A stretch of 38,034 nucleotides of DNA from Chloroflexota bacterium (GTDB taxonomy: Bacteria; Chloroflexota; Dehalococcoidia; Lucifugimonadales; UBA3495), in contig JAQBVF010000032.1 in the NCBI GenBank assembly GCA_027623675.1, forward strand, positions 1 through 38,034, written 5' to 3'. Below the pieces are notes generated by a model. It saw nothing but the letters and a program-made list of their open reading frames with translations. It had not been told where the DNA came from and ran no database searches. A program made the position numbers and the translations under genes. This document shows, piece after piece, positions 3,264 through 20,139 of the stretch. The first letter of the stretch is position 1, and every line of letters starts with the position of its first letter.

Positions 3264-3480
3264 GGAGCGGCTAAACCCTAAAACCGGACCAACCGCCCTC
3301 CGTTTCTGCTTGCAACGGGACGCTTGATGGGCCACGATAGATGGGGGCCATCGCCCCCGGGGGCTTGCGTTTGGTTCCCGTGTGGGACTGGGTTCCACGG
3401 TTTTGATCAAGGTCGGCGTGTGGGCGCTTTTGGAGCCTGTGGCAACCGATCGAGGGACGTGTGGTATTGAGGGAAGTGTG

Positions 3481-4065
3481 GTGAGGCGGACTACTTCATA
3501 TATCTTACTGGCCGGAATACTTCTCTTAGTGGGGTTTGGTGTGCTGGGGGCGTCCCCGCCCCAATCTGAGCGTCCTCCCCAACCCTTCTTTCAGGATTTC
3601 TTCTCCGGCGCCGCGCGCGTGCTCGGTTCGCCCGCTCCCGAGGGCACCGAACTGATCGCCTGCATCGACGATTGTGAGACGGGTTTCCAAAGTAAACCAT
3701 ACTTTCTGGATGCTGGGGGACTCTTCAACGGCTTGGAGGTTGATCCGTCCAACGAGGCCCTGATCGGGCGCACCATCACCTTTTACCTGGTGAACTCGTT
3801 CGGCAGGATCCAGGCGGTGGAGTCCAGGCCATATATCGGCGTGTTCGACTTTTACGTTCAAGACCTCACCTTCGTTGACCCGCTTCCCTCTCCTGCCCCC
3901 ACACCCAAACCGGAATCCACCCCGGTACCTACTCCCACGGCTTCATTGCCCATCGCGGGCGATCCGTCGGTTACCAAGTTTCCCAAATTGGCTTTGATGG
4001 CCGGTGGAGCCGCGGTGGTCGCCGGTGGCACGCTCCTGCTGCTCGGTAGACGTAAAGCCGAGTAA
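3481..4065 (+). CDS. Exported protein with Pro/Thr linker and LPxAG-TM-basic tail (sorting-signal-like C-terminus)
   Basis: GTG start after GAGGGA, N-terminal hydrophobic helix, PTPKPESTPVPTPT linker, then LPIAG, a hydrophobic helix and RRKAE. Confidence 0.7.
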   Translation: MRRTTSYILLAGILLLVGFGVLGASPPQSERPPQPFFQDFFSGAARVLGSPAPEGTELIACIDDCETGFQSKPYFLDAGGLFNGLEVDPSNEALIGRTITFYLVNSFGRIQAVESRPYIGVFDFYVQDLTFVDPLPSPAPTPKPESTPVPTPTASLPIAGDPSVTKFPKLALMAGGAAVVAGGTLLLLGRRKAE

Positions 4066-4269
4066 AGGGCAGTTCGTCCAGGCCATGGCATTCTCACTCC
4101 GGTAACCCACGGCCGCAGACCGCCGCTTCCTCTTGGTTTGCCTAGGGTCCACTTGCTTCGTCGGCCAGGCCGTCAACGCTATTTGGACGTGCGGATGGGC
4201 TTTATTAGAAAGTAAGGGATGGAGTTGATGGGGATTTCGGGGACCGTCAAAGGGGCAGACGGGAAGTGG

Positions 4270-4914
4270 TTAGCGTGGGCGCCCTTGGCTGGTCATTACC
4301 ACCACTCTCATGTCGGTGCCCAGACTCGTAGGCGTGACGACCAGCCTAGGCTGCGCTTGGACATCTTCCAACCCCATGCGGCGGACGAAATTGTCTATGG
4401 GGTCTACCTCTGCGTTCAGGCCGTCGGTTTTGTAATGCATCGGGATGGCGATCTTGCCGTCCAGGTCCTGCAGCACTTGAAACACCTGCTCCATGTCCAG
4501 GGTGCAGTGGGCTCCGGCGGGAACCAAGACCACATCAACCGGCTTTAATTCGTCGATCAAACGGGTGGGCAAAGGCACCGAGATATCCCCCAAATGGCAG
4601 ATATTGATGCCGCCCATGGAGATGGTGAAGGCAACGTTTCGCTCTGAGAGGGGTTGGCCATCGGGCAATGGAGTCATTACCCCCCTTGCCGTTACGCCGT
4701 TGAATTCGTACTCGCCGGGATTGGAGAATATCTTGGGGTCACCCTCGATGCCGGTGGTGTGGTCGTGATTGGGGTGCGCGTTGCTCACCGTTACGATGGA
4801 AGCCGGCCGGTTATCGACCCTGAGGCCGATGGACGGCGGGTAAGGGTCGGTCATCACCACCATGTCGGCGTCGTGAAGCCGGAAGCAAGAGTGCCCTAGC
4901 CAAGTTATGTCCAT
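4270..4914 (-). CDS. MBL-fold metallo-hydrolase
   Basis: ITWLGHSCF, TDPY, SNAHPNHD, CHLGD and IPMHY motifs. Confidence 0.9.
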   Translation of the reverse strand: MDITWLGHSCFRLHDADMVVMTDPYPPSIGLRVDNRPASIVTVSNAHPNHDHTTGIEGDPKIFSNPGEYEFNGVTARGVMTPLPDGQPLSERNVAFTISMGGINICHLGDISVPLPTRLIDELKPVDVVLVPAGAHCTLDMEQVFQVLQDLDGKIAIPMHYKTDGLNAEVDPIDNFVRRMGLEDVQAQPRLVVTPTSLGTDMRVVVMTSQGRPR

Positions 4915-5597
4915 CGTCCATCCCGGTGTTGTTTCAGATTTAAGAGGCTCCAGGCGACGGGGACCGAGATAGCCGCGAGATACAGCTTGATCAGGTCACC
5001 GGCGATGAAGGGGTAGAGTCCGTATTCCAGCACCTTGTCGTTGGGTACGAAGAATGAAAGCTGCAGGAGGCCGGGAATGTAAATGATGGCGTTTCCGGCG
5101 AGCATGGCTATCATGATCCACGACTTACGGTCCCAACCACGTTCGCAGAGGTAGCCGACCACGAAGGCCGCGGGGATGAATCCGATTATGTAACCGCCGG
5201 ACGCCAGGTCCCACAACAGGCCTGAGGTACCGGAGGTGATACCAAAGAGGTAGCCGCCGGACCCTGCCGACCAGTGAAAGACTGAGGAACTTCCGCCGGC
5301 GAATACGGATAATTGGCTTCCTTCAACCGCATACAAGGCCACTGCCGCGGCGCCCCGCCAACTGCCCAACACCGCTCCCGCCAGGAGCACAGCCAAGGTT
5401 TGTCCGGTGATGGGCACCGGAGTGAAGGGAAGGTAGACCGATATACGAGCTGATCCGGCCACCAACAGACTGAAAGCGACTATGAGAACCGCGTCACGGG
5501 CGATGCGCGCGCCGAGTCGGTCAACGGGGACGATAACGTCGATGAGGGAAAGAGTTCTAGCCTGAGGAATCACGCCAATCCCAACCCACCTGATCAA
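4905..5597 (-). CDS. bioY: Biotin transporter S component BioY
   Basis: PFTPVPITGQTLAVLLAGAVLG, GGYIIGFIPAA and PFIAGDLIK motifs. The true start may be the GTG at 5573. Confidence 0.9.
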   Translation of the reverse strand: MIRWVGIGVIPQARTLSLIDVIVPVDRLGARIARDAVLIVAFSLLVAGSARISVYLPFTPVPITGQTLAVLLAGAVLGSWRGAAAVALYAVEGSQLSVFAGGSSSVFHWSAGSGGYLFGITSGTSGLLWDLASGGYIIGFIPAAFVVGYLCERGWDRKSWIMIAMLAGNAIIYIPGLLQLSFFVPNDKVLEYGLYPFIAGDLIKLYLAAISVPVAWSLLNLKQHRDGRWT

Positions 5598-5784
5598 TGA
5601 TTAAATTAATGATTAAAATCCAGGACAAAACCCTGGGAAACGATAGGGACGAAAGCCCTGGCTGAGTATAATTGGGCTGGGCGGTTGGGTCAACGTTTGA
5701 CACTTCCCAGAAAGCTATGGTAACGTCCGAAAGCGGCTCCCACAGCCTCAAACTGAGGGGATGCGAGGCTGTGTTGGCGGGGGA

Positions 5785-6816
5785 ATGATGCTCGGCGAAC
5801 GCGCAGCAACCGTACTTAACGTTCTCGTGGGTGAATACCTTCAATCCGCTACTCCGGTAGCGTCAGATGATATCGCCCGCAACCTCCCGCATCAGATCAG
5901 CTCCGCCAGCGTCCGCACCACCATGTCTCAGCTCGCCGAGGACGGCTATATCTCCCGGCCACACGTATCTTCGGGCGGCGTTCCTTCAGACCTGGGCTAC
6001 CGGTTCTACGTCGAATCCCTACCCGAGATTCCCCAGCTATCTTCCGAATTACGCGAAAGCGTTGACCGTGACCTGGCCCAGACGGAGCCTGACATAGGCT
6101 CTTGGAGCCAACGGTGCGCGGCGATATTGTCGAGGTTGACTGCGAACCTGGCCATCGTCACCGCCCCCAGGGCCGTTTCTCCCCGCCTCAAGCGGATCCA
6201 ACTCGTCTTCCTCCAAGAAACGACGGCGCTGCTGGTTGTGGTGCTTGAAGAGGCAAGGCTCCTCAGACGCCTGCTACCCTTCGGCAATAGGGTGGACCAA
6301 GCACAACTGGACCTGGCCGCCAACCGCCTTAATGAGTCGCTGGGCGGTCTGAGCCGGGCCCAGATGCAAGCCAACCAACTAGAGCTGAACTCACTGGAAG
6401 AGCAGGTCAAAGAGGGCTCTCTCAGCCTGATGCGAGAAGCCGAAGCAGCCAACGCCTATGAGCAATACACGGATGGACTACGCCTGCTCCTTGGCCAGCC
6501 GGAGTTTTCCAGAGGGGAACTGGCGCGTGAGTTGGTGCAGTTGGTGGAAGAACGCGTCCTGTTGGAACGGGTCCTTAGGGGCATGGCCGAGTCCGGAGAC
6601 CCGGTGGTTTGTATCGGCGCGGAGAACCAAGATGAGTTCCTGACTCCGTTCGGCGTAATCTTGTGCCAGTACGGCGCTCCCCAAGGCGTCAGCGGCACCA
6701 TCTGCGTCGTCGGACCAAAACGCATGGAGTACATCGCAGCCATCAGCGGCGTCCGGCACCTGTCGTCTTTCATGAGTCAGATGGTCCAGGGCATCCAGGG
6801 CAGCGGCGCAGCGTAG
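5785..6816 (+). CDS. hrcA: Heat-inducible transcription repressor HrcA
   Basis: EYLQSATPVAS, SSASVR, PHVSSGGVPSDLGYRFYV and VVGPKRMEY motifs. Confidence 0.93.
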   Translation: MMLGERAATVLNVLVGEYLQSATPVASDDIARNLPHQISSASVRTTMSQLAEDGYISRPHVSSGGVPSDLGYRFYVESLPEIPQLSSELRESVDRDLAQTEPDIGSWSQRCAAILSRLTANLAIVTAPRAVSPRLKRIQLVFLQETTALLVVVLEEARLLRRLLPFGNRVDQAQLDLAANRLNESLGGLSRAQMQANQLELNSLEEQVKEGSLSLMREAEAANAYEQYTDGLRLLLGQPEFSRGELARELVQLVEERVLLERVLRGMAESGDPVVCIGAENQDEFLTPFGVILCQYGAPQGVSGTICVVGPKRMEYIAAISGVRHLSSFMSQMVQGIQGSGAA

Positions 6817-15640: not shown

Positions 15641-16638
15641 AATTTGGAGTCGGCATAGTTCCCCACGACCTTAAAGAAACCGCCGTCAGCGCCAGACTGG
15701 CCGAGGACCTGGGTTTCGACTACATCGGCATCCCCGACTCCCAGTCCCTTTGGCGGGAGCTATATCTGAGCCTGAGCGTGGTCGCCAACAACACCAGCAA
15801 AGCGCATATCGGCCCAACCGTGACCAACGCCCTCACCCGCCACCCGGCGGTTACCGCGTCGGCCGTTGCCACCCTGAACGAGATATCCGGAGGGCGGGCG
15901 TTCGTGGGCATCGGCAGCGGCGACAGCGCCATCCTCAACCTGGGCTTGCGCCCGGCCAGGCTCAAGGAGCTGGAGGAGTACATCCACGCCCTGCGCGCCA
16001 TGCTAGCCGGGCAACCTTTCAACTACAAAGGCAGGTCCATCCATGTCCAATGGTCGGACCAGCCAGTGCCCATCGTCATGTCGGCCGAGGGGCCCAAGAC
16101 CCTGGCCCTGGCCGGCGCCGTTGCGGACGCGGTGATCGTCCATTCGGGCCTGACCAAAGACGTGCTGGCCGACACCATCGCCCGGATCAGAGAGGGGGAG
16201 CGTGCCGCTGGCCGGCCTGAAGGGTCCGCAGAGGTGTGGGCCTTCGCCAAGTGCAACATCGCCGACCGCCGCGAAGACGCCGTCAACGAGATCAAGATGG
16301 CCCTCGTTGCGTCGGGACACCACGCCTTCCGGTTCACCCTGGAGGGCAAGAACGTGCCAGAGGACCTGCAAGAGTCGGTGATGGCCCTTCAAGGCGAGTA
16401 TGTTGCCTCGGAGCATGAGCAATTGGGGGATACCCGGAACGCGGCGCTCAGCGACGAACTGGGCCTGACCGACTTCCTGGCCGACCGGTTCGCCGTGGTG
16501 GGTACGCCTGAGGATTGCCTGGCCAAGGTCCGTACCATTAGGGACGCTGGCGTGGACAATCTTCTGATATTGGCAACCAGTTCCGATTCGGACAACATAA
16601 TCCGGCGCTTCGGGCAGGAGGTGATTGCCCGCCTGTGA
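15637..16638 (+). CDS. LLM-class (luciferase-like, Mer-like) flavin/F420-dependent oxidoreductase
   Basis: AEDLGFDYIGIPDSQ, VTNALTRHPAVTA, SGGRAFVGIGSGDS, GPKTL and VGTPEDC motifs. ATGA overlap with the upstream gene. Confidence 0.9.
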   Translation: MKFGVGIVPHDLKETAVSARLAEDLGFDYIGIPDSQSLWRELYLSLSVVANNTSKAHIGPTVTNALTRHPAVTASAVATLNEISGGRAFVGIGSGDSAILNLGLRPARLKELEEYIHALRAMLAGQPFNYKGRSIHVQWSDQPVPIVMSAEGPKTLALAGAVADAVIVHSGLTKDVLADTIARIREGERAAGRPEGSAEVWAFAKCNIADRREDAVNEIKMALVASGHHAFRFTLEGKNVPEDLQESVMALQGEYVASEHEQLGDTRNAALSDELGLTDFLADRFAVVGTPEDCLAKVRTIRDAGVDNLLILATSSDSDNIIRRFGQEVIARL

Positions 16639-16716
16639 GCGAAAGATTGATTAAATAAGATCGAAATCGGCATGATCTGACATAGGGCTGGTCTGCCGAT
16701 CTCGTCTGGTTGATGC

Positions 16717-16742
16717 CGGTATTGGGTAGTGGGTCAATTTGA
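16717..16742 (+). repeat. Left target-site duplication plus left terminal inverted repeat
   Basis: cggtattg + ggtagtgggtcaatttga. Confidence 0.92.
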
Positions 16743-16787
16743 ACCGGCGGCGTATAATAAGGAAACACACGACTAGGTGAGGTTGGG

Positions 16788-17003
16788 ATGCCGTACATAA
16801 ACATTGTCCTGAAAAATGGCACGTTGATTCCAGTTGACGATGCCGATGATGTCGCATGGGTGAATGAGTGGTCATACGATGGAGCTACAGGAACACATCG
16901 CATCATTCGGGTCGTCTGCAAACGTGGTGAAGATGTGCGAGCCAAGTTCAATGCTGATGATGTATCTGGGTACACCTGGCATAACGGCAACCGGCTTAGG
17001 TAA
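16788..17003 (+). CDS. 71-aa hypothetical passenger protein
   Basis: GAGG RBS upstream and TATAAT at 16753-16758. Beta-strand-rich sequence, convergent with and slightly overlapping the transposase end. Confidence 0.6.
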   Translation: MPYINIVLKNGTLIPVDDADDVAWVNEWSYDGATGTHRIIRVVCKRGEDVRAKFNADDVSGYTWHNGNRLR

Positions 17004-17823
17004 CTAAGCTAACGATTTCCTCTGCACTCCAAACATGGTCTGCAACGCCAGCGGCCATCGCGGGAGTGGTCAAGGAACCCAGGCTACTGTGAGGGCGTGC
17101 GAAGTTGTACCACATGAAATGCAAGGCTACGGCATGTTCTAGGTTCTCGATCTTCTTGGAGAATCCATTGGTCAATCGGGTGAAACGCCGCATGCTCATT
17201 CTCATGGTCAAGTTTTGGCGTTCGATGAAACTGGTAGATACATGCGCCGGGTCCGGACTGCCCTGGATAACATTGGGCTTGGTTCCTATGCAATCGGCAG
17301 GGCTGTACCGGCGTTGGGTCTCTGTAGGGTCGGCACCATATAACTTGATTAACTGCGCATAGTCAATGTCAGAGCCGAAAGCATCATCAACTGCCGAGAG
17401 ATAGGATTTCAGTCCATCGGTTGTTAGCTGAACATGATGCGACAATCTTCCGGCCAGGTCTGTCATAAGTTCATGGGCGTATCCAGCGTCCCGTAATCCT
17501 ACAAGCCACGACGCAACCAGCTTCGTATCAGCATCCATAGCAACCCACGTCCAAGCGTCTCCGGCGAAGTCTCTCTTATCCTGTGGCACGTTCTTCTGCT
17601 TGGCGTATACAAAGCTCCAAATCTCATCACACTGGATTCGGCGGCAAGTGAGATCGCGTAGGTGTTCATCTTGGTATCGGGAGCAGGCAGTACCCACATC
17701 AACAAGAAGCCGCGTGACCGTACCCTTGGCGGTATCAGTCATGCGGCATGTTGCGCGAATACTATTGCCCTCAACGAGGGTTTTGATGATTTGGGAACGG
17801 CGTTGGATGCTTAGCTTGTTCAT
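16996..17823 (-). CDS. IS1-family DDE transposase (single ORF, N-terminal HTH, no zinc ribbon; ISMhu11-like)
   Basis: HTH LVEGNSIRATCRMT. Catalytic motifs QCDEIWSFV, LTTDG and IERQNLTMRMSMRRFTR. C-terminal YNFARPH...TPAMAAG. Confidence 0.9.
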   Translation of the reverse strand: MNKLSIQRRSQIIKTLVEGNSIRATCRMTDTAKGTVTRLLVDVGTACSRYQDEHLRDLTCRRIQCDEIWSFVYAKQKNVPQDKRDFAGDAWTWVAMDADTKLVASWLVGLRDAGYAHELMTDLAGRLSHHVQLTTDGLKSYLSAVDDAFGSDIDYAQLIKLYGADPTETQRRYSPADCIGTKPNVIQGSPDPAHVSTSFIERQNLTMRMSMRRFTRLTNGFSKKIENLEHAVALHFMWYNFARPHSSLGSLTTPAMAAGVADHVWSAEEIVSLVT

Positions 17824-17826
17824 GCC

Positions 17827-18342
17827 TTAATTATAGGCATTAGCTTTCGCATTGTCAAGCTCTAAAGGGTCATATTCATAGTCCTGGGATACGCCGATTG
17901 GTTCATGTGACAGCCGAGAATCGCCTATGAACTTAAAACGGCCCTGGCCCTGTTTCCCTGGTTCCCAATCTTCGCTATTAGACATTAGGTGGTAGAGATT
18001 GGAATACAAACTTCTACGTTTCGCTTTGGAGCGGCCAGAAGCTTTAATCAGATCAGCCGCGTCAGCGGTCTTAACCCATCCGTCGCCGTGACGGGCCATA
18101 ATTACCAAAGCCTCGTTGTGTGAGGAAGCTTCGGCAATCTTAGATAGCGGAATATCAGGCGCATCAGGGTGTACCAAAGATCGGCCGTATTCGATTGCCT
18201 TCTGGATAGCGTCTAGATTGGCTTTTGCTGTCTCGAAAGCTCTCTGAGCATCTTCCAGGTCCACGGCTGCATCTTCCATCTGTTTTAGAGCGTTCTCTGC
18301 CCATTCTAGGAGTTTGGCCTCGGCTAGGTTATTTGTAGTCAT
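17827..18342 (-). CDS. 171-aa hypothetical passenger protein (N-terminal coiled coil, possible winged-helix C-domain)
   Basis: AAAGGTG RBS-like site, heptad-like N-terminus, and helix/wing pattern in KTADAADLIKASG...LYSNLYHLM...GQGRFKF. Confidence 0.65.
   Translation of the reverse strand: MTTNNLAEAKLLEWAENALKQMEDAAVDLEDAQRAFETAKANLDAIQKAIEYGRSLVHPDAPDIPLSKIAEASSHNEALVIMARHGDGWVKTADAADLIKASGRSKAKRRSLYSNLYHLMSNSEDWEPGKQGQGRFKFIGDSRLSHEPIGVSQDYEYDPLELDNAKANAYN
17830..17858 (-). promoter_or_regulatory. Consensus sigma70-type promoter for the transposase (probably leaderless mRNA)
   Basis: Minus strand reads TTGACA-17 nt-TATAAT-taaggc-ATG. Confidence 0.8.
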
Positions 18343-18431
18343 GTTGTTACACCTTTACCAATCGTACGTACACATCATCAATGATGCGTTGACACCACCA
18401 ACACCTACCTCTGTACAGTGAATGAATCGAG

Positions 18432-18516
18432 CGGAGAGTAGCGGAGTCGGACCGCAACGCTGTGCACGCTCATCGGTTTTTAAGACCGAGTCCCCATCCG
18501 AGGGGCAATACTCTCC
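18432..18516 (-). tRNA. Non-canonical 8/4 tRNA (allo-tRNA-like), anticodon UAA, serine-type body
   Basis: Minus strand: GGAGAGTA-TTG-CCCC(TCGGAT)GGGG-AC-TCGGT(CTTAAAA)ACCGA-17 nt variable arm-GCGG(TCCGACT)CCGC-TACTCTCC-G. This gives an 8-bp acceptor stem, 4-bp T-stem and G discriminator. CCA is not encoded. Confidence 0.8.
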
Positions 18517-18602
18517 ACAAAAGGCCACCGCTGGGGTTATAACCCTAGAAGTCGATTGAACGCCTGCAAGCGTTCGTCAGCAACACGGGGGCCGCACAGA
18601 TA

Positions 18603-18647
18603 ACCGGTGATGAAAGTTGACCGCTCACATCACCGGTCATTATAACA
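18603..18647 (-). promoter_or_regulatory. Extended -10 promoter with adjacent 10-bp inverted repeat, pointing at the allo-tRNA
   Basis: Minus strand TG-T-TATAAT (18647-18639). Inverted repeat accggtgatg (18603-18612) / catcaccggt (18628-18637). Confidence 0.55.
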
Positions 18648-18696
18648 TGACAGTACCTAAGCGGTCCCCCGATAATCGGGAGCGAGGGGGGTAATA

Positions 18697-18849
18697 ATGG
18701 CTAAACCGATTACAGAAAATCCAGTTCTTCGCGGAAAGGCGGCTAAAAAGTTCAAAGAGATGTTTCTCTTAAATACAAAGCCTGATCCGGAAAAAATCAA
18801 ACGTCACAAGGAAGATGTGGAAGTCTTTAGGCAATCTACGGATAGATAG
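18697..18849 (+). CDS. 50-aa small protein, candidate antitoxin of the neighbouring GNAT (absent from the ORF track)
   Basis: GAGGGGGG RBS, then ATG...TAG encoding MAKPITENPVLRGKAAKKFKEMFLLNTKPDPEKIKRHKEDVEVFRQSTDR. Confidence 0.7.
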   Translation: MAKPITENPVLRGKAAKKFKEMFLLNTKPDPEKIKRHKEDVEVFRQSTDR

Positions 18850-18877
18850 ACTAGAATCCACGACTCTCATATGCCCA

Positions 18878-18918
18878 ACATGAAAGAGGGGAGCTATATT
18901 AGCTCCCCTCTTTCATGT
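18878..18918. terminator. Bidirectional terminator-like 19-bp perfect hairpin between the convergent 50-aa ORF and GNAT
   Basis: acatgaaagaggggagcta-tat-tagctcccctctttcatgt. Overlaps the GNAT stop codon. Confidence 0.75.
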
Positions 18919-19431
18919 CTCTGGATATAAATCATAAACCATGAACAAGTGTGTCCCTCCCCCGCCTGGGGGAAAGTTAATAAAACCTTGTGATTCCCAG
19001 AAATCGCGTCCAGGTTTATTATTACGTTCAACGTGAAGTGTTAAGAATTTAACCCCGATTTCGCTTTCGATTGCAGCACCACGAATCCAAGAAAGCATAA
19101 ATTTCCCAATGCCTTGGCGCTGGCTCTGCTCATCAACTCCAAATTGCGCTATCAATACACAAGGTACGTAAGAACGCGTTATTTGTCCTAATCCAAAGCG
19201 GCTTTTCCATGAAGATTCTTCCATTTTGATATTAGACGCGACTAAGGAAGTAAAACCCGCTATCTGCACACCAGAGTGGCATGTCCAAGTCACATTCAAC
19301 CCTAATTCTTGCTGTGCGAATGCATCCTCTTTTAGGAAATCGGAAACATCTTTTTCCCATTCCAAAGAACCGCAACTAAAATTACTCAGATCATGGGAAT
19401 GGGACAGCCGTGTCATCTTAAACAATGACAC
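18913..19431 (-). CDS. GNAT N-acetyltransferase resembling TacT/AtaT-type aminoacyl-tRNA-acetylating toxins
   Basis: HDLSNFSCG...DFLKEDA N-terminus, VPCVLIAQFGVD, acetyl-CoA motif QRQGIG, and LTLHV...FWESQGF. Confidence 0.8.
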   Translation of the reverse strand: MSLFKMTRLSHSHDLSNFSCGSLEWEKDVSDFLKEDAFAQQELGLNVTWTCHSGVQIAGFTSLVASNIKMEESSWKSRFGLGQITRSYVPCVLIAQFGVDEQSQRQGIGKFMLSWIRGAAIESEIGVKFLTLHVERNNKPGRDFWESQGFINFPPGGGGTHLFMVYDLYPET

Positions 19432-19483
19432 GTTACAAGCCCCAAACTCTTTATGTGCTCAGATGGAAGCATTGCAGGGTAAG

Positions 19484-19714
19484 TTACGGTCTATTAGCCC
19501 ACCTAGCTTGTGCAGCCTTTCTAGCCGATGCGCTCCGTTCTTCTGGCGTCATCTTAGCCGCCCTGGCCTTCCCGCCCTTCAACCCGCCTTTCTTACCGCG
19601 TTCTGCCGCGCTGGCGTTCTTGCTCGTGTCAGGTGCCGGTTCGCCGGTAGCTTCCTCGGTAATGAAAGCGGCTAGAGCGTTTACGTCTTTGGGTGGCTTC
19701 TTCTGTTTAGGCAT
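19484..19714 (-). CDS. 76-aa basic small protein with KGG-like motif (histone-H1-like, putative nucleic-acid binding)
   Basis: ERGKKGGLKGGKARAAKMTPEERSASARKAAQARW. Preceded on the minus strand by TTGACA-18 nt-AATAAT-aaggt-ATG. Confidence 0.8.
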   Translation of the reverse strand: MPKQKKPPKDVNALAAFITEEATGEPAPDTSKNASAAERGKKGGLKGGKARAAKMTPEERSASARKAAQARWANRP

Positions 19715-19761
19715 ACCTTATTATTTGCTCACGCATCCGGTGCTGTCAATTAGCTTCGGAC

Positions 19762-19787
19762 TCAAATTGACCCACTACCCGGTATTG
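19762..19787 (+). repeat. Right terminal inverted repeat plus right target-site duplication
   Basis: tcaaattgacccactacc + cggtattg. Confidence 0.92.
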
Positions 19788-19854
19788 GGTTGACTTGCAC
19801 GAGTTATACGCTAAACTATGAATAGCCAAATTCAGGACTACTCGGAGGAGCCAA

Positions 19855-20139
19855 ATGGAAGGAAAGTTTCAGATTGAAATTACCTACTGCGTAAGTTGAC
19901 AGCATCACGCTGTCGCCACGTGGATGGCGAATGAATTTTTCCGGCACTATGGCAAGGACGCCGCTATCGCGATTTCCCCTCGCGGCCAGGGCATCATGGA
20001 AGTGTTCTTCAATGGTGAGCGGATATTCGACAAGAAGGGCGAAGGCAACATCTATCCCGACCTCAAGCGGGTCCGGGAGATGCGCCAGGTCATCGATGCC
20101 AAGATTGAGGCTCTCGAGCCCGCTCCGGCCGACGACTAG
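19855..20139 (+). CDS. Rdx-family (SelT/SelW/SelH-like) selenoprotein, 94 aa, with in-frame UGA
   Basis: GGAGGAG RBS, then MEGKFQIEITYCVS-UGA(19897-19899)-QHHAVATWMANEF...GIMEVFFNGERIFDKK...YPD. This gives a CxxU motif with a downstream hairpin. Confidence 0.88.
19898..19930 (+). promoter_or_regulatory. Candidate bacterial SECIS element
   Basis: Hairpins directly 3' of the UGA: gacagc-atcac-gctgtc and tcgcca-cgtgga-tggcga. Confidence 0.5.

Follow-up and report, generated by a model that had tools for sequence, protein, structure and literature searches.

A recently inserted IS1-related element in a Chloroflexota genome that probably carries two unrelated cassettes, a GNAT toxin-like pair and an allo-type tRNA

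Introduction

Why should an insertion sequence (IS) of some 3 kb carry a tRNA and an acetyltransferase gene side by side, and do the two belong together? The question is raised by an element lying, with its flanking duplication, at positions 16717 to 19787 of contig JAQBVF010000032.1 from a Chloroflexota bacterium (Dehalococcoidia, UBA3495; assembly GCA_027623675.1); the whole stretch analysed, 38,034 nt of that contig, is called the window here, and coordinates refer to it unless another contig is named. A first-pass annotation made from the sequence had described a recently inserted, intact IS1-family element with passenger genes, namely open reading frames (ORFs) of 71, 171, 50 and 76 aa, an allo-tRNA and a toxin-like gene of the GNAT family, and had proposed that this cargo forms one self-contained module directed at translation and spread by the IS.

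The reading favoured here, at a probability of roughly two in three (about 0.68), is a recently inserted IS1-related passenger-carrying element whose cargo slot holds two unrelated cassettes and not one system. The element would be a fixed chassis, with 18-bp terminal inverted repeats (TIRs), an 8-bp target-site duplication (TSD), and a gene at each end, one for a small basic protein and the other for a single-ORF DDE transposase, and the content of its slot would be exchanged between otherwise near-identical elements, so that two cassettes could become joined through cargo shuffling. The first cassette would be a toxin-antitoxin (TA)-like pair, a GNAT resembling TacT, AtaT and KacT with a convergent 50-aa protein, which may make loss of the element costly or abort phage infection. 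The second would be an 8/4 allo-type tRNA(UAA) with serine-like marks followed by a coiled-coil/winged-helix protein, one case of a recurrent passenger class in which an odd tRNA, often with a helix-turn-helix (HTH) protein, sits just upstream of the transposase. As published allo-tRNAs suggest by analogy, this tRNA may be charged by seryl-tRNA synthetase (SerRS) and read UUA, a codon that is rare in the host.

Results

The ends of the element were defined by a repeat search and by a match scan of the window. The left TIR, GGTAGTGGGTCAATTTGA, occupies 16725..16742 (+) and its reverse complement forms the right TIR at 19762..19779 (-); the two agree over 18 bp with 0 mismatches, start with GGTAGTG and give a length of 3,055 bp from TIR to TIR. 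They were the only two matches to GGTAGTGGGTCAATTTGA in the window with up to 3 mismatches allowed, and 100 shuffled windows contained a mean of 0.01 matches, none of them having two. Immediately outside lie the two copies of the duplication CGGTATTG (16717..16724 and 19780..19787), enclosed by a 12-bp direct repeat, CCGGTATTGGGT, at 16716-16727 and 19779-19790. Ends identical to GGTAGTGGGTCAATTTGA were found in the related loci L011, L012, L024 and L030. Duplications of 8 bp flanked 8/8 related elements delimited by hand, as well as 22/80 viral loci delimitable by a script that took only candidates with an 8-bp repeat of at most 1 mismatch. GC content is 0.42-0.53 within the element and about 0.58-0.68 outside.

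Comparison of the region with 40 relatives, 19 of them from the same genus, revealed the empty site. In 16/19 genomes of the genus a single contig carries both flanks with 32-112 bp between them, and the element is absent; the alignments stop at window position 16634 and restart at 19779-19803, which is the element's right end. One relative, L007, has the exact uninterrupted target, ...cggCGGTATTGggttgacttgc..., with a single copy of CGGTATTG. The element was also present in two DNA sequencing runs of one study (X1 and X2), and both contained a contig joint, 16715->19779, that skips it. Summed contig depth of flanks versus element was about 50 versus about 21 in X1 and about 10 versus 4-5 in X2; these data were read for coexistence only, since contig depth does not equal the share of cells and short-sided joints may mislead (the sides here were 18 and 30 letters). 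Empty and filled alleles coexist in the same community, and the insertion is for that reason taken to be recent. The window's own genome contains one copy only, by DNA search and by transposase profile search, and the element was not found in any run on record as RNA. Perfect repeats starting with GGT, an 8-bp duplication, lower GC inside and recent insertion, all claimed by the first-pass annotation, were thus borne out. A second joint in X1, 17823->19758 (side 22), is probably not a deletion form: the sequence at its loose end is like that preceding the transposase in L011, and the joint is read as the contig of a related element of the GmrSD type described below.

Whether tRNA and GNAT travel together was assessed from both sides. 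Twelve other GNAT loci were fetched (9 metagenomic and 3 from Dehalococcoidia metagenome-assembled genomes, MAGs), and 109 loci of the transposase lineage were surveyed for cargo (80 viral and 29 genomic). A tRNA was present in 0/12 of the GNAT loci (ARAGORN; Rfam at E<=0.01). Conversely, the GNAT, the 50-aa ORF and the 171-aa ORF were present in 0/80 viral and 0/29 genomic transposase loci, and none of the 10 loci with a transposase-adjacent tRNA holds the GNAT. Within elements L011 to L021 there was no tRNA, all ARAGORN calls at these loci falling outside the elements. Two considerations weigh against the independence of the cassettes: the sample is small, with 12 GNAT loci and 10 tRNA loci, and co-carriage of tRNA and GNAT in this single element could be functional.

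The clearest case of exchange is a sister element, L011, in a genome of the same genus (G014). Its TIRs are identical to those of the window, it has an 8-bp duplication of its own, GGTGGCAC, and its transposase shares 88% nt and 96% aa identity. Similarity breaks off exactly at the start codon of the transposase and is found again from a point inside the first ~25 codons of the 76-aa gene; the interval holds a ribbon-helix-helix (RHH)-like ORF and a GmrSD_N+GmrSD_C protein where the window has its four genes. This sister element lies at 3302-6290 of G014:C196, about 80 bp from a tRNA-Asp gene, and its copy of the 76-aa gene is cut to 49 aa with a different tail.

Ends could be set for seven further genomic and metagenomic relatives, 1.9 to 3.05 kb long, each with matching TIRs and its own 8-bp duplication. 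Their cargo is diverse: HTH + Peptidase_M78 (ImmA/IrrE-like) and a 226-aa ORF in L013; a weak GIY-YIG match in L016; a weak aspartyl protease match and a 227-aa ORF in L017, where the transposase is split; a 126-aa membrane-like ORF in L019; a P63C-domain protein in L020; an N6_N4 methylase fused to Mrr_cat in L021; and the GNAT with the 50-aa ORF in L026.

What stays constant is the gene at the far end. The 76-aa basic protein (19484..19714, -) has a homologue adjoining the TIR opposite the transposase in all eight delimited relatives, whatever their cargo, and tblastn with it gave matches in 54/80 viral and 12/29 genomic loci, the genomic flanks extending only 1.5 kb. Its homologues share a C-terminal motif, GGKARA..L.PE.R.EIA.KAA.ARW, and the protein matched no Pfam family. 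An 11/12 promoter-like match upstream of the gene (19720..19749, -), called by consensus scan only, lies just inside the right TIR. Because it stands at the TIR end of relatives regardless of their cargo, the 76-aa gene, which had at first been counted among the passengers, is by this comparison a fixed core gene of the IS lineage, and the cargo slot is, on the same grounds, the stretch between it and the transposase. In L020 (3299-4441), the P63C cargo protein opens with a second copy of the motif, KGG..AR...L..EE....RKAA.ARW, so the motif is also found fused to other domains. Contigs from X1 and X2 skip 117 bases within the gene (window 19588-19706), probably a variant or a related copy in the community.

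At the other end, the transposase (16996..17823, -) is a single uninterrupted ORF of 275 aa that has an HTH at its N-terminus and lacks a zinc ribbon. The Pfam model DDE_Tnp_IS1 was passed with 32.7 bits against a cut-off of 24.1, although matched over only 37 residues; plasmid homologues with 55-62% identity carry the PGAP annotation 'IS1 family transposase'; and the relative L026 matched HTH_Tnp_IS1 at E 8e-4. Pfam scans of the transposase and its relatives gave no match to a zinc ribbon, the HTH part alone being seen. Against the assignment to IS1 stands the NCBIfam model transpos_IS1, which scored 60.5 bits, below its cut-off of 100. Residues D66, D136, E201 and R208 are invariant across 10 relatives and presumably include the DDE catalytic triad. 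The reading frame stops about 250 bp short of the left TIR, unlike that of most relatives, which terminates within the TIR (...DSN*, encoded by GATTCAAATTGA). Of the intact IS1-family element with passengers that had been described initially, the TIRs, the TSD, the passengers and the undamaged transposase stand; its early end departs from the pattern of the lineage, and the family label, under the NCBIfam cut-off, is given here as IS1-related.

A promoter-like site with a 12/12 match, TTGACA-17-TATAAT (17830..17858, -; consensus scan only), lies in the 3' end of the 171-aa ORF, 7 bp ahead of the transposase start, and is unusually strong for an IS transposase. The lineage is common: the viral collection contained 274 relatives, and 41/400 other genomes sampled from the class carried it at E<=1e-30.

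The GNAT gene (18913..19431, -) was identified by Pfam (Acetyltransf_1) and placed in a TacT/AtaT/KacT-like clade by comparing a profile of its small family (17 clusters at E<=0.001) with the PDB. The top 15 rows, all with the length of these toxins, matched residues ~13-162, nearly the full length, at E 9e-14 to 1e-7 (6ajn/6ajm, 6gtp-6gts, 7chd, 5zgn/5xun, 9ilr, 7ak7, 6g96, 5fvj, 7ak8 and 7f36/7f37). KacT is the sole toxin named by depositors among these, the other names being generic; the other rows I take, from their entry codes, to be AtaT and TacT entries. The remaining GNATs in the PDB matched at E 5e-6 or worse and over the C-terminal core only. The acetyl-CoA loop is kept as QRQGIG, with G107 and G109 invariant, and aligns with the GQGWG of AtaT. 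With TA GNATs as the closest PDB matches, the initial description of the gene as toxin-like was upheld.

Convergent with the GNAT is the gene for a 50-aa protein (18697..18849, +), a candidate antitoxin. The same ORF stands beside the GNAT in 11/12 other loci, convergently downstream in 10 and upstream on the same strand in L033, and in the twelfth the contig ends within the GNAT. Its N-terminus, MAKP, is invariant; it had no Pfam match and no PDB match, and its Atlas scores were all <0.9. A model of the GNAT/50-aa complex reached a median score of 0.69, versus 0.00 for the best of 3 controls. This score was reached by 116/157 solved complexes and 2/215 mismatched pairs in a benchmark whose counts hold only roughly here because own alignments were used. 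Runs agreed in at least 87% of contacts, the pLDDT (the model's local confidence score) of the partner was at least 76, and the best modelled contacts involved residues 111-122 of the GNAT, which adjoin the QRQGIG motif. The 50-aa protein is accordingly modelled, and predicted, to sit on the acetyl-CoA site of the GNAT.

Two features surround the 50-aa gene. Between the convergent genes, the repeat search found a perfect 19-bp hairpin (18878..18918), which likely serves as a two-way terminator. On the other side, the divergent control region between tRNA and 50-aa ORF (18600..18680; repeat and promoter scans) has a 13-bp hairpin at 18600-18640, followed at 18647-18676 (+) by a promoter-like site that would serve the 50-aa ORF; read by eye, TGTTATAAT would be an extended -10 on the minus strand near 18643-18651.

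The pair is habitually found with transposases, and not of one kind. In L024, L026 and L029 it follows an IS1-like transposase, and in L030 it follows a TIR and a 76-aa gene. In L023, L025, L027 and L028, the start of the GNAT and the stop of an IS1595-type transposase (zinc ribbon and ISXO2-like domain) overlap, again with the 50-aa gene convergent; this type was called by Pfam for L028 only and judged by eye for the other three. A C-terminal transposase remnant lies beside the pair in L022. With the window counted, the GNAT is next to a transposase or a remnant in 10/13 loci, and its presence on IS1595-type elements means that the same cassette has been captured by an unrelated IS family.

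Several points weigh against a toxin of the familiar kind. Residue Y144 of AtaT is catalytic, and Y144F lowers toxicity, according to a passage in PMC7595197; it aligns with W145 of the GNAT, and Trp occupies this position in 17/17 family members. With Trp145 at the place of the catalytic Tyr, the GNAT may work differently or be non-toxic. An RHH/DUF1778 antitoxin is absent, neither the 76-aa nor the 50-aa ORF having a Pfam match. Complexes of related TA systems have already been solved; the binding of the 50-aa protein, which is without a known family, is a prediction from the model. The alternative that survives best follows from these points: the GNAT would be a transposition accessory enzyme, or an inactive relic, whose expression goes along with that of the transposase, the 50-aa protein being its regulatory subunit. 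Besides the uniform Trp, the overlap of the GNAT start with the transposase stop in L023, L024, L025, L027 and L028 and the adjacency in 10/13 loci fit it well. It has more difficulty with the full-length similarity to the toxin clade, which includes the N-terminal F-x-C-G region (E 1e-13, versus 5e-6 or worse for other GNATs), with the intact acetyl-CoA motif over which the partner is predicted to lie as antitoxins do, and with L031-L033, where no IS1-like transposase occurs within 5 kb. I consider it unlikely, and prefer a TA-like pair in which the GNAT may work like a TacT/AtaT-type toxin while departing from the catalytic-Tyr hallmark.

The second cassette begins with the tRNA (18432..18516, -; anticodon UAA). 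ARAGORN called it Leu(taa); its best Rfam family was tRNA-Sec, its 47.7 bits exceeding the gathering score of 47. It has an acceptor stem of 8 bp (GGAGAGUA/UACUCUCC, with GGAGAG) and a T stem of 4 bp (GCGG/CCGC), that is, the 8/4 shape on which the first-pass call of an allo-tRNA can be maintained, together with a long variable arm with a 5-bp stem and the discriminator G73. It ends without an encoded CCA; 46/50 host tRNAs end in CCA, and the host has two CCA-adding-type enzyme genes in addition to its own tRNA-Leu(UAA) and tRNA-Sec. In a crude global alignment, similarity to host tRNAs was 0.78 for tRNA-Sec, 0.71-0.73 for tRNA-Ser and 0.67 for tRNA-Leu. No full-length match was found in 400 genomes of the class, only T-arm matches of 21-31 nt.

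The lineage repeatedly carries tRNAs beside its transposase: 9/80 viral loci (6 distinct elements) and 1/29 genomic loci had one at most 300 nt upstream and on the same strand, and I estimate roughly that chance would place one there in about 0.25% of loci. The anticodons were GUA (L056), AUA plus UCC (L067), UUA (L068 and the near-identical L078-L081), CGG (L074), GCU (L082, 74 nt) and ACU (L135). The anticodon-UUA tRNAs on viral contigs (L068, 3776-3859; L078-L081, about 3781-3866) would read the stop codon UAA. The L068 element is only 1.3 kb and gave no tblastn match with the window's 76-aa protein. A diverged transposase of the lineage is followed after about 300 nt by an 89-nt UAU tRNA (L160, 2596-2684 of G379:C21) whose variable arm is long.

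Directly before the tRNA in L074, L082 and L135 stands a protein that, judged by eye, combines an N-terminal coiled coil with a winged-helix-like C-terminal half; the L074 protein alone gave a HARE-HTH match, a weak one (E 3e-4). The window's 171-aa passenger (17827..18342, -) has the same architecture but comes after the tRNA. Its AlphaFold2 (AF2) model from 24 sequences (pLDDT 85) comprises a long N-terminal helix (4-57) and a winged-helix-like domain (66-136); an earlier model from 3 sequences was poor (pLDDT 60). Foldseek gave no fold match at E<=0.001, the best-probability rows being RNA polymerase delta/HARE-HTH and forkhead domains. The protein has close relatives in 2 clusters only and 205 remote ones, none named, and matched no Pfam family; its hidden Markov model (HMM) matched nothing in any fetched locus. 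The comparison that would tie it to the recurrent class was not significant (hhalign probabilities of 1.5% and 0.3% against the L074 and L082 proteins), which counts against placing it there.

Serine charging and UUA reading by this tRNA would follow from analogy with published allo-tRNAs. Two allo-tRNAs of Silvibacterium bohemicum, one 8/4 and one 9/3, inserted Ser at CUC/UUA reporters in E. coli, as a review relates (PMC7609411), and allo-tRNAs often lie near TA systems or transposon genes, as stated in parts of PMC5389517. A number of observations speak against an active serine tRNA. Position 55 in the T loop is C and not U, and the D stem has only 4 Watson-Crick pairs, features that could leave the tRNA inactive in translation. 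The consensus scan passed no promoter for it. Finally, 3 TTA codons of the GNAT fall at invariant Leu positions, and a Ser-inserting UAA tRNA would therefore damage the GNAT. That the odd tRNAs of this lineage are working recoding agents, in this case Ser-charged, UUA-reading and accompanied by a winged-helix protein, is a long shot.

These codons lead to a different proposal, that the tRNA is a codon helper, charged with Leu and aiding the reading of UUA in the AT-richer genes of the element as phage-borne tRNAs do. TTA is rare in the host, at 1.8 per 1000 codons and 1.9% of Leu codons (from a crude set of 1,358 long ORFs with a third-position GC content, GC3, of >0.65), and the six ORFs of the element contain 11, of which 5 are in the GNAT, including those at the invariant Leu positions, and 4 in the transposase. 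The ARAGORN call of tRNA-Leu agrees with this. The identity of the tRNA does not: A73 is an identity element for LeuRS, and the host tRNA-Leu UAA and CAA have A73, whereas the passenger has G73 as in host tRNA-Ser. The 8/4 geometry and the match to the tRNA-Sec model are also atypical for a tRNA-Leu, and the host already owns a tRNA-Leu(UAA). A more specific form, in which the tRNA is matched to a fixed rare codon of the transposase, was rejected: when 10 transposases are compared, TTA keeps to no conserved position, and 3/4 transposase TTA codons of the window recur in the sister L011, which has no tRNA. A Leu-charged helper is thus rather improbable.

It is similarly doubtful that the tRNA is a non-decoding RNA, such as a signal in cis at which cuts by RNase P or RNase Z insulate the transposase mRNA by uncoupling it from read-through out of the cargo. 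Its fixed place on the same strand, at most 300 nt upstream of the transposase in 10/109 relatives with seven different anticodons, would be well explained, as would C55. In the window, however, the 171-aa ORF and the 12/12 promoter separate tRNA and transposase; about 90% of relatives do without a tRNA, and the tRNAs found fold as full cloverleaves. An allo-type tRNA with serine-like marks, forming a cassette of its own, remains the preferred description.

Least probable of all, and very much so, is that tRNA, GNAT and small ORFs form one translation-targeting system spread by the IS, with the GNAT acetylating the charged tRNA or the tRNA acting as decoy or antidote: the two parts each work on or within translation, aminoacyl-tRNAs are acetylated by GNAT toxins of this clade (in a passage of PMC7595197), allo-tRNAs are reported near TA loci (in parts of PMC5389517) and the tRNA is divergent from the GNAT partner gene at about 180 bp, but the 0/12 and 0/109 counts, the latter including the 10 tRNA-bearing loci, stand against it, as do the conserved protein partner that the GNAT already has and the L026 and L029 elements, which with GNAT and 50-aa ORF hold only 190-270 bp at the place of the tRNA and 171-aa gene. 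The first-pass annotation had named tRNA and GNAT never co-occurring in other copies as the observation that would speak against its single module, and since this is what the sample contains, the module is not supported. Its statement that the combination is no recognised named system agrees with PADLOC-DB 2.0, which gave 0 matches to the window's six ORFs at E<=0.01, the only row being ZorA at E 0.02 on a coiled coil.

Two features lie apart from both cassettes. The 71-aa ORF (16788..17003, +) is an orphan within an extra segment of ~270 bp that separates the left TIR from the transposase 3' end; relatives are without this segment. Apart from itself, no homologue was found among 5.8 billion proteins, and tblastn gave no match in any locus, so that it may not be a gene. 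Outside the element, a Rdx-family (SelW-like) gene adjoins the insertion (19855-20139, +; Pfam Rdx E 6e-14). Its reading requires an in-frame TGA at codon 15 to be read as selenocysteine (motif C-V-S-U), and the host has a tRNA-Sec. A promoter-like site for this gene, TTGACT-16-TAAACT at 19790-19817, begins 3 bp past the duplication, and the IS therefore directly abuts this site.

Discussion

The common IS1-related lineage described here appears to be a vehicle for small gene cassettes: within one genus, near-identical chassis carry GmrSD in one case and GNAT plus tRNA in the other. The window contributes this swap of cargo between sister elements, and the finding that two IS families habitually carry the GNAT/50-aa pair. 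The pair would represent a new form of the GNAT TA theme, with Trp in place of Tyr and a 50-aa partner of no known family, and its occurrence on two unrelated IS families points to TA pairs as habitual IS passengers. An IS that repeatedly carries odd tRNAs, of missense type or with an ochre anticodon, may offer a route by which changes in decoding pass between genomes and phages. Were the recoding reading true, the IS would spread a device for codon-biased mistranslation that harms foreign genes or tunes the element's own toxin and spares the host, UUA being nearly avoided by the host and frequent in AT-richer invaders and in the toxin-like gene of the element. In the literature, judged by title among the matches listed, there was nothing relevant on GNAT TA systems with IS or on tRNAs as IS1 passengers; subscription journals and ISfinder/TnPedia lay outside the scope of this search.

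Among known systems, the IS1 family is the nearest relative of the chassis. IS1 elements have short TIRs and target duplications of 8-9 bp, and canonical members encode an InsA with a zinc finger and produce InsAB' by frameshifting. The window element resembles them in passing the Pfam IS1 model, in TIRs that start with GGT, in its 8-bp duplication and in an InsA-type HTH. It differs from canonical IS1 in its single ORF, with no zinc ribbon and no InsA/InsB frameshift, and its lineage departs further by having 0.5-2 kb of room for cargo and, opposite the transposase, an additional conserved basic gene. ISfinder presumably also has an IS1 subgroup with passenger genes (ISMhu11). In having IS-like ends, one transposase and passengers inside the TIRs, the element matches the transporter IS (tIS) of ISfinder/TnCentral; the sole paper passage found on these restricts them to the IS1595 and IS66 families, whereas the window lineage is related to IS1.

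The tRNA shares with the allo-tRNAs of Mukai et al. 2017 (PMC5389517, as far as its passages on them go) a 12-bp acceptor branch in the 8/4 arrangement, the long variable arm, G73, the match to the tRNA-Sec model, and linkage to a transposable element and a TA-like pair. The Leu-codon allo-tRNAs in those passages are 9/3, unlike the 8/4 tRNA of the window, which also has only 4 good D-stem pairs and C55. Allo-tRNAs carry G73 or U73, are charged with Ser or Ala, and resemble tRNA-Sec in a long D stem closed by a tetraloop and in a long anticodon stem; with the window tRNA set in the tRNA-Sec register, 2/6 D-stem and 1/6 anticodon-stem pairs are non-standard. The hosts given there are Clostridia, Proteobacteria and Acidobacteria; here, the nearest GNAT loci are in Dehalococcoidia MAGs.

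In the TA pairs of Tn3-family transposons (Lima-Mendez et al. 2020, PMC7157771), a TA pair likewise lies by the transposition genes and is viewed as part of the transposition module. The transposon class and the TA families are different ones, GNAT being unmentioned in the main text of that paper, and the carrier here is an IS of 2-3 kb. Closest in kind to the first cassette are the type II GNAT/RHH systems AtaT-AtaR, TacT-TacA, KacT-KacA and ItaT-ItaR, with which it shares a full-length GNAT, an intact acetyl-CoA loop and a small adjacent protein that is predicted to bind. Unlike them, the window GNAT has Trp, its partner is 50 aa long, without RHH/DUF1778, and usually convergent downstream, and pairs of this type habitually ride insertion sequences.

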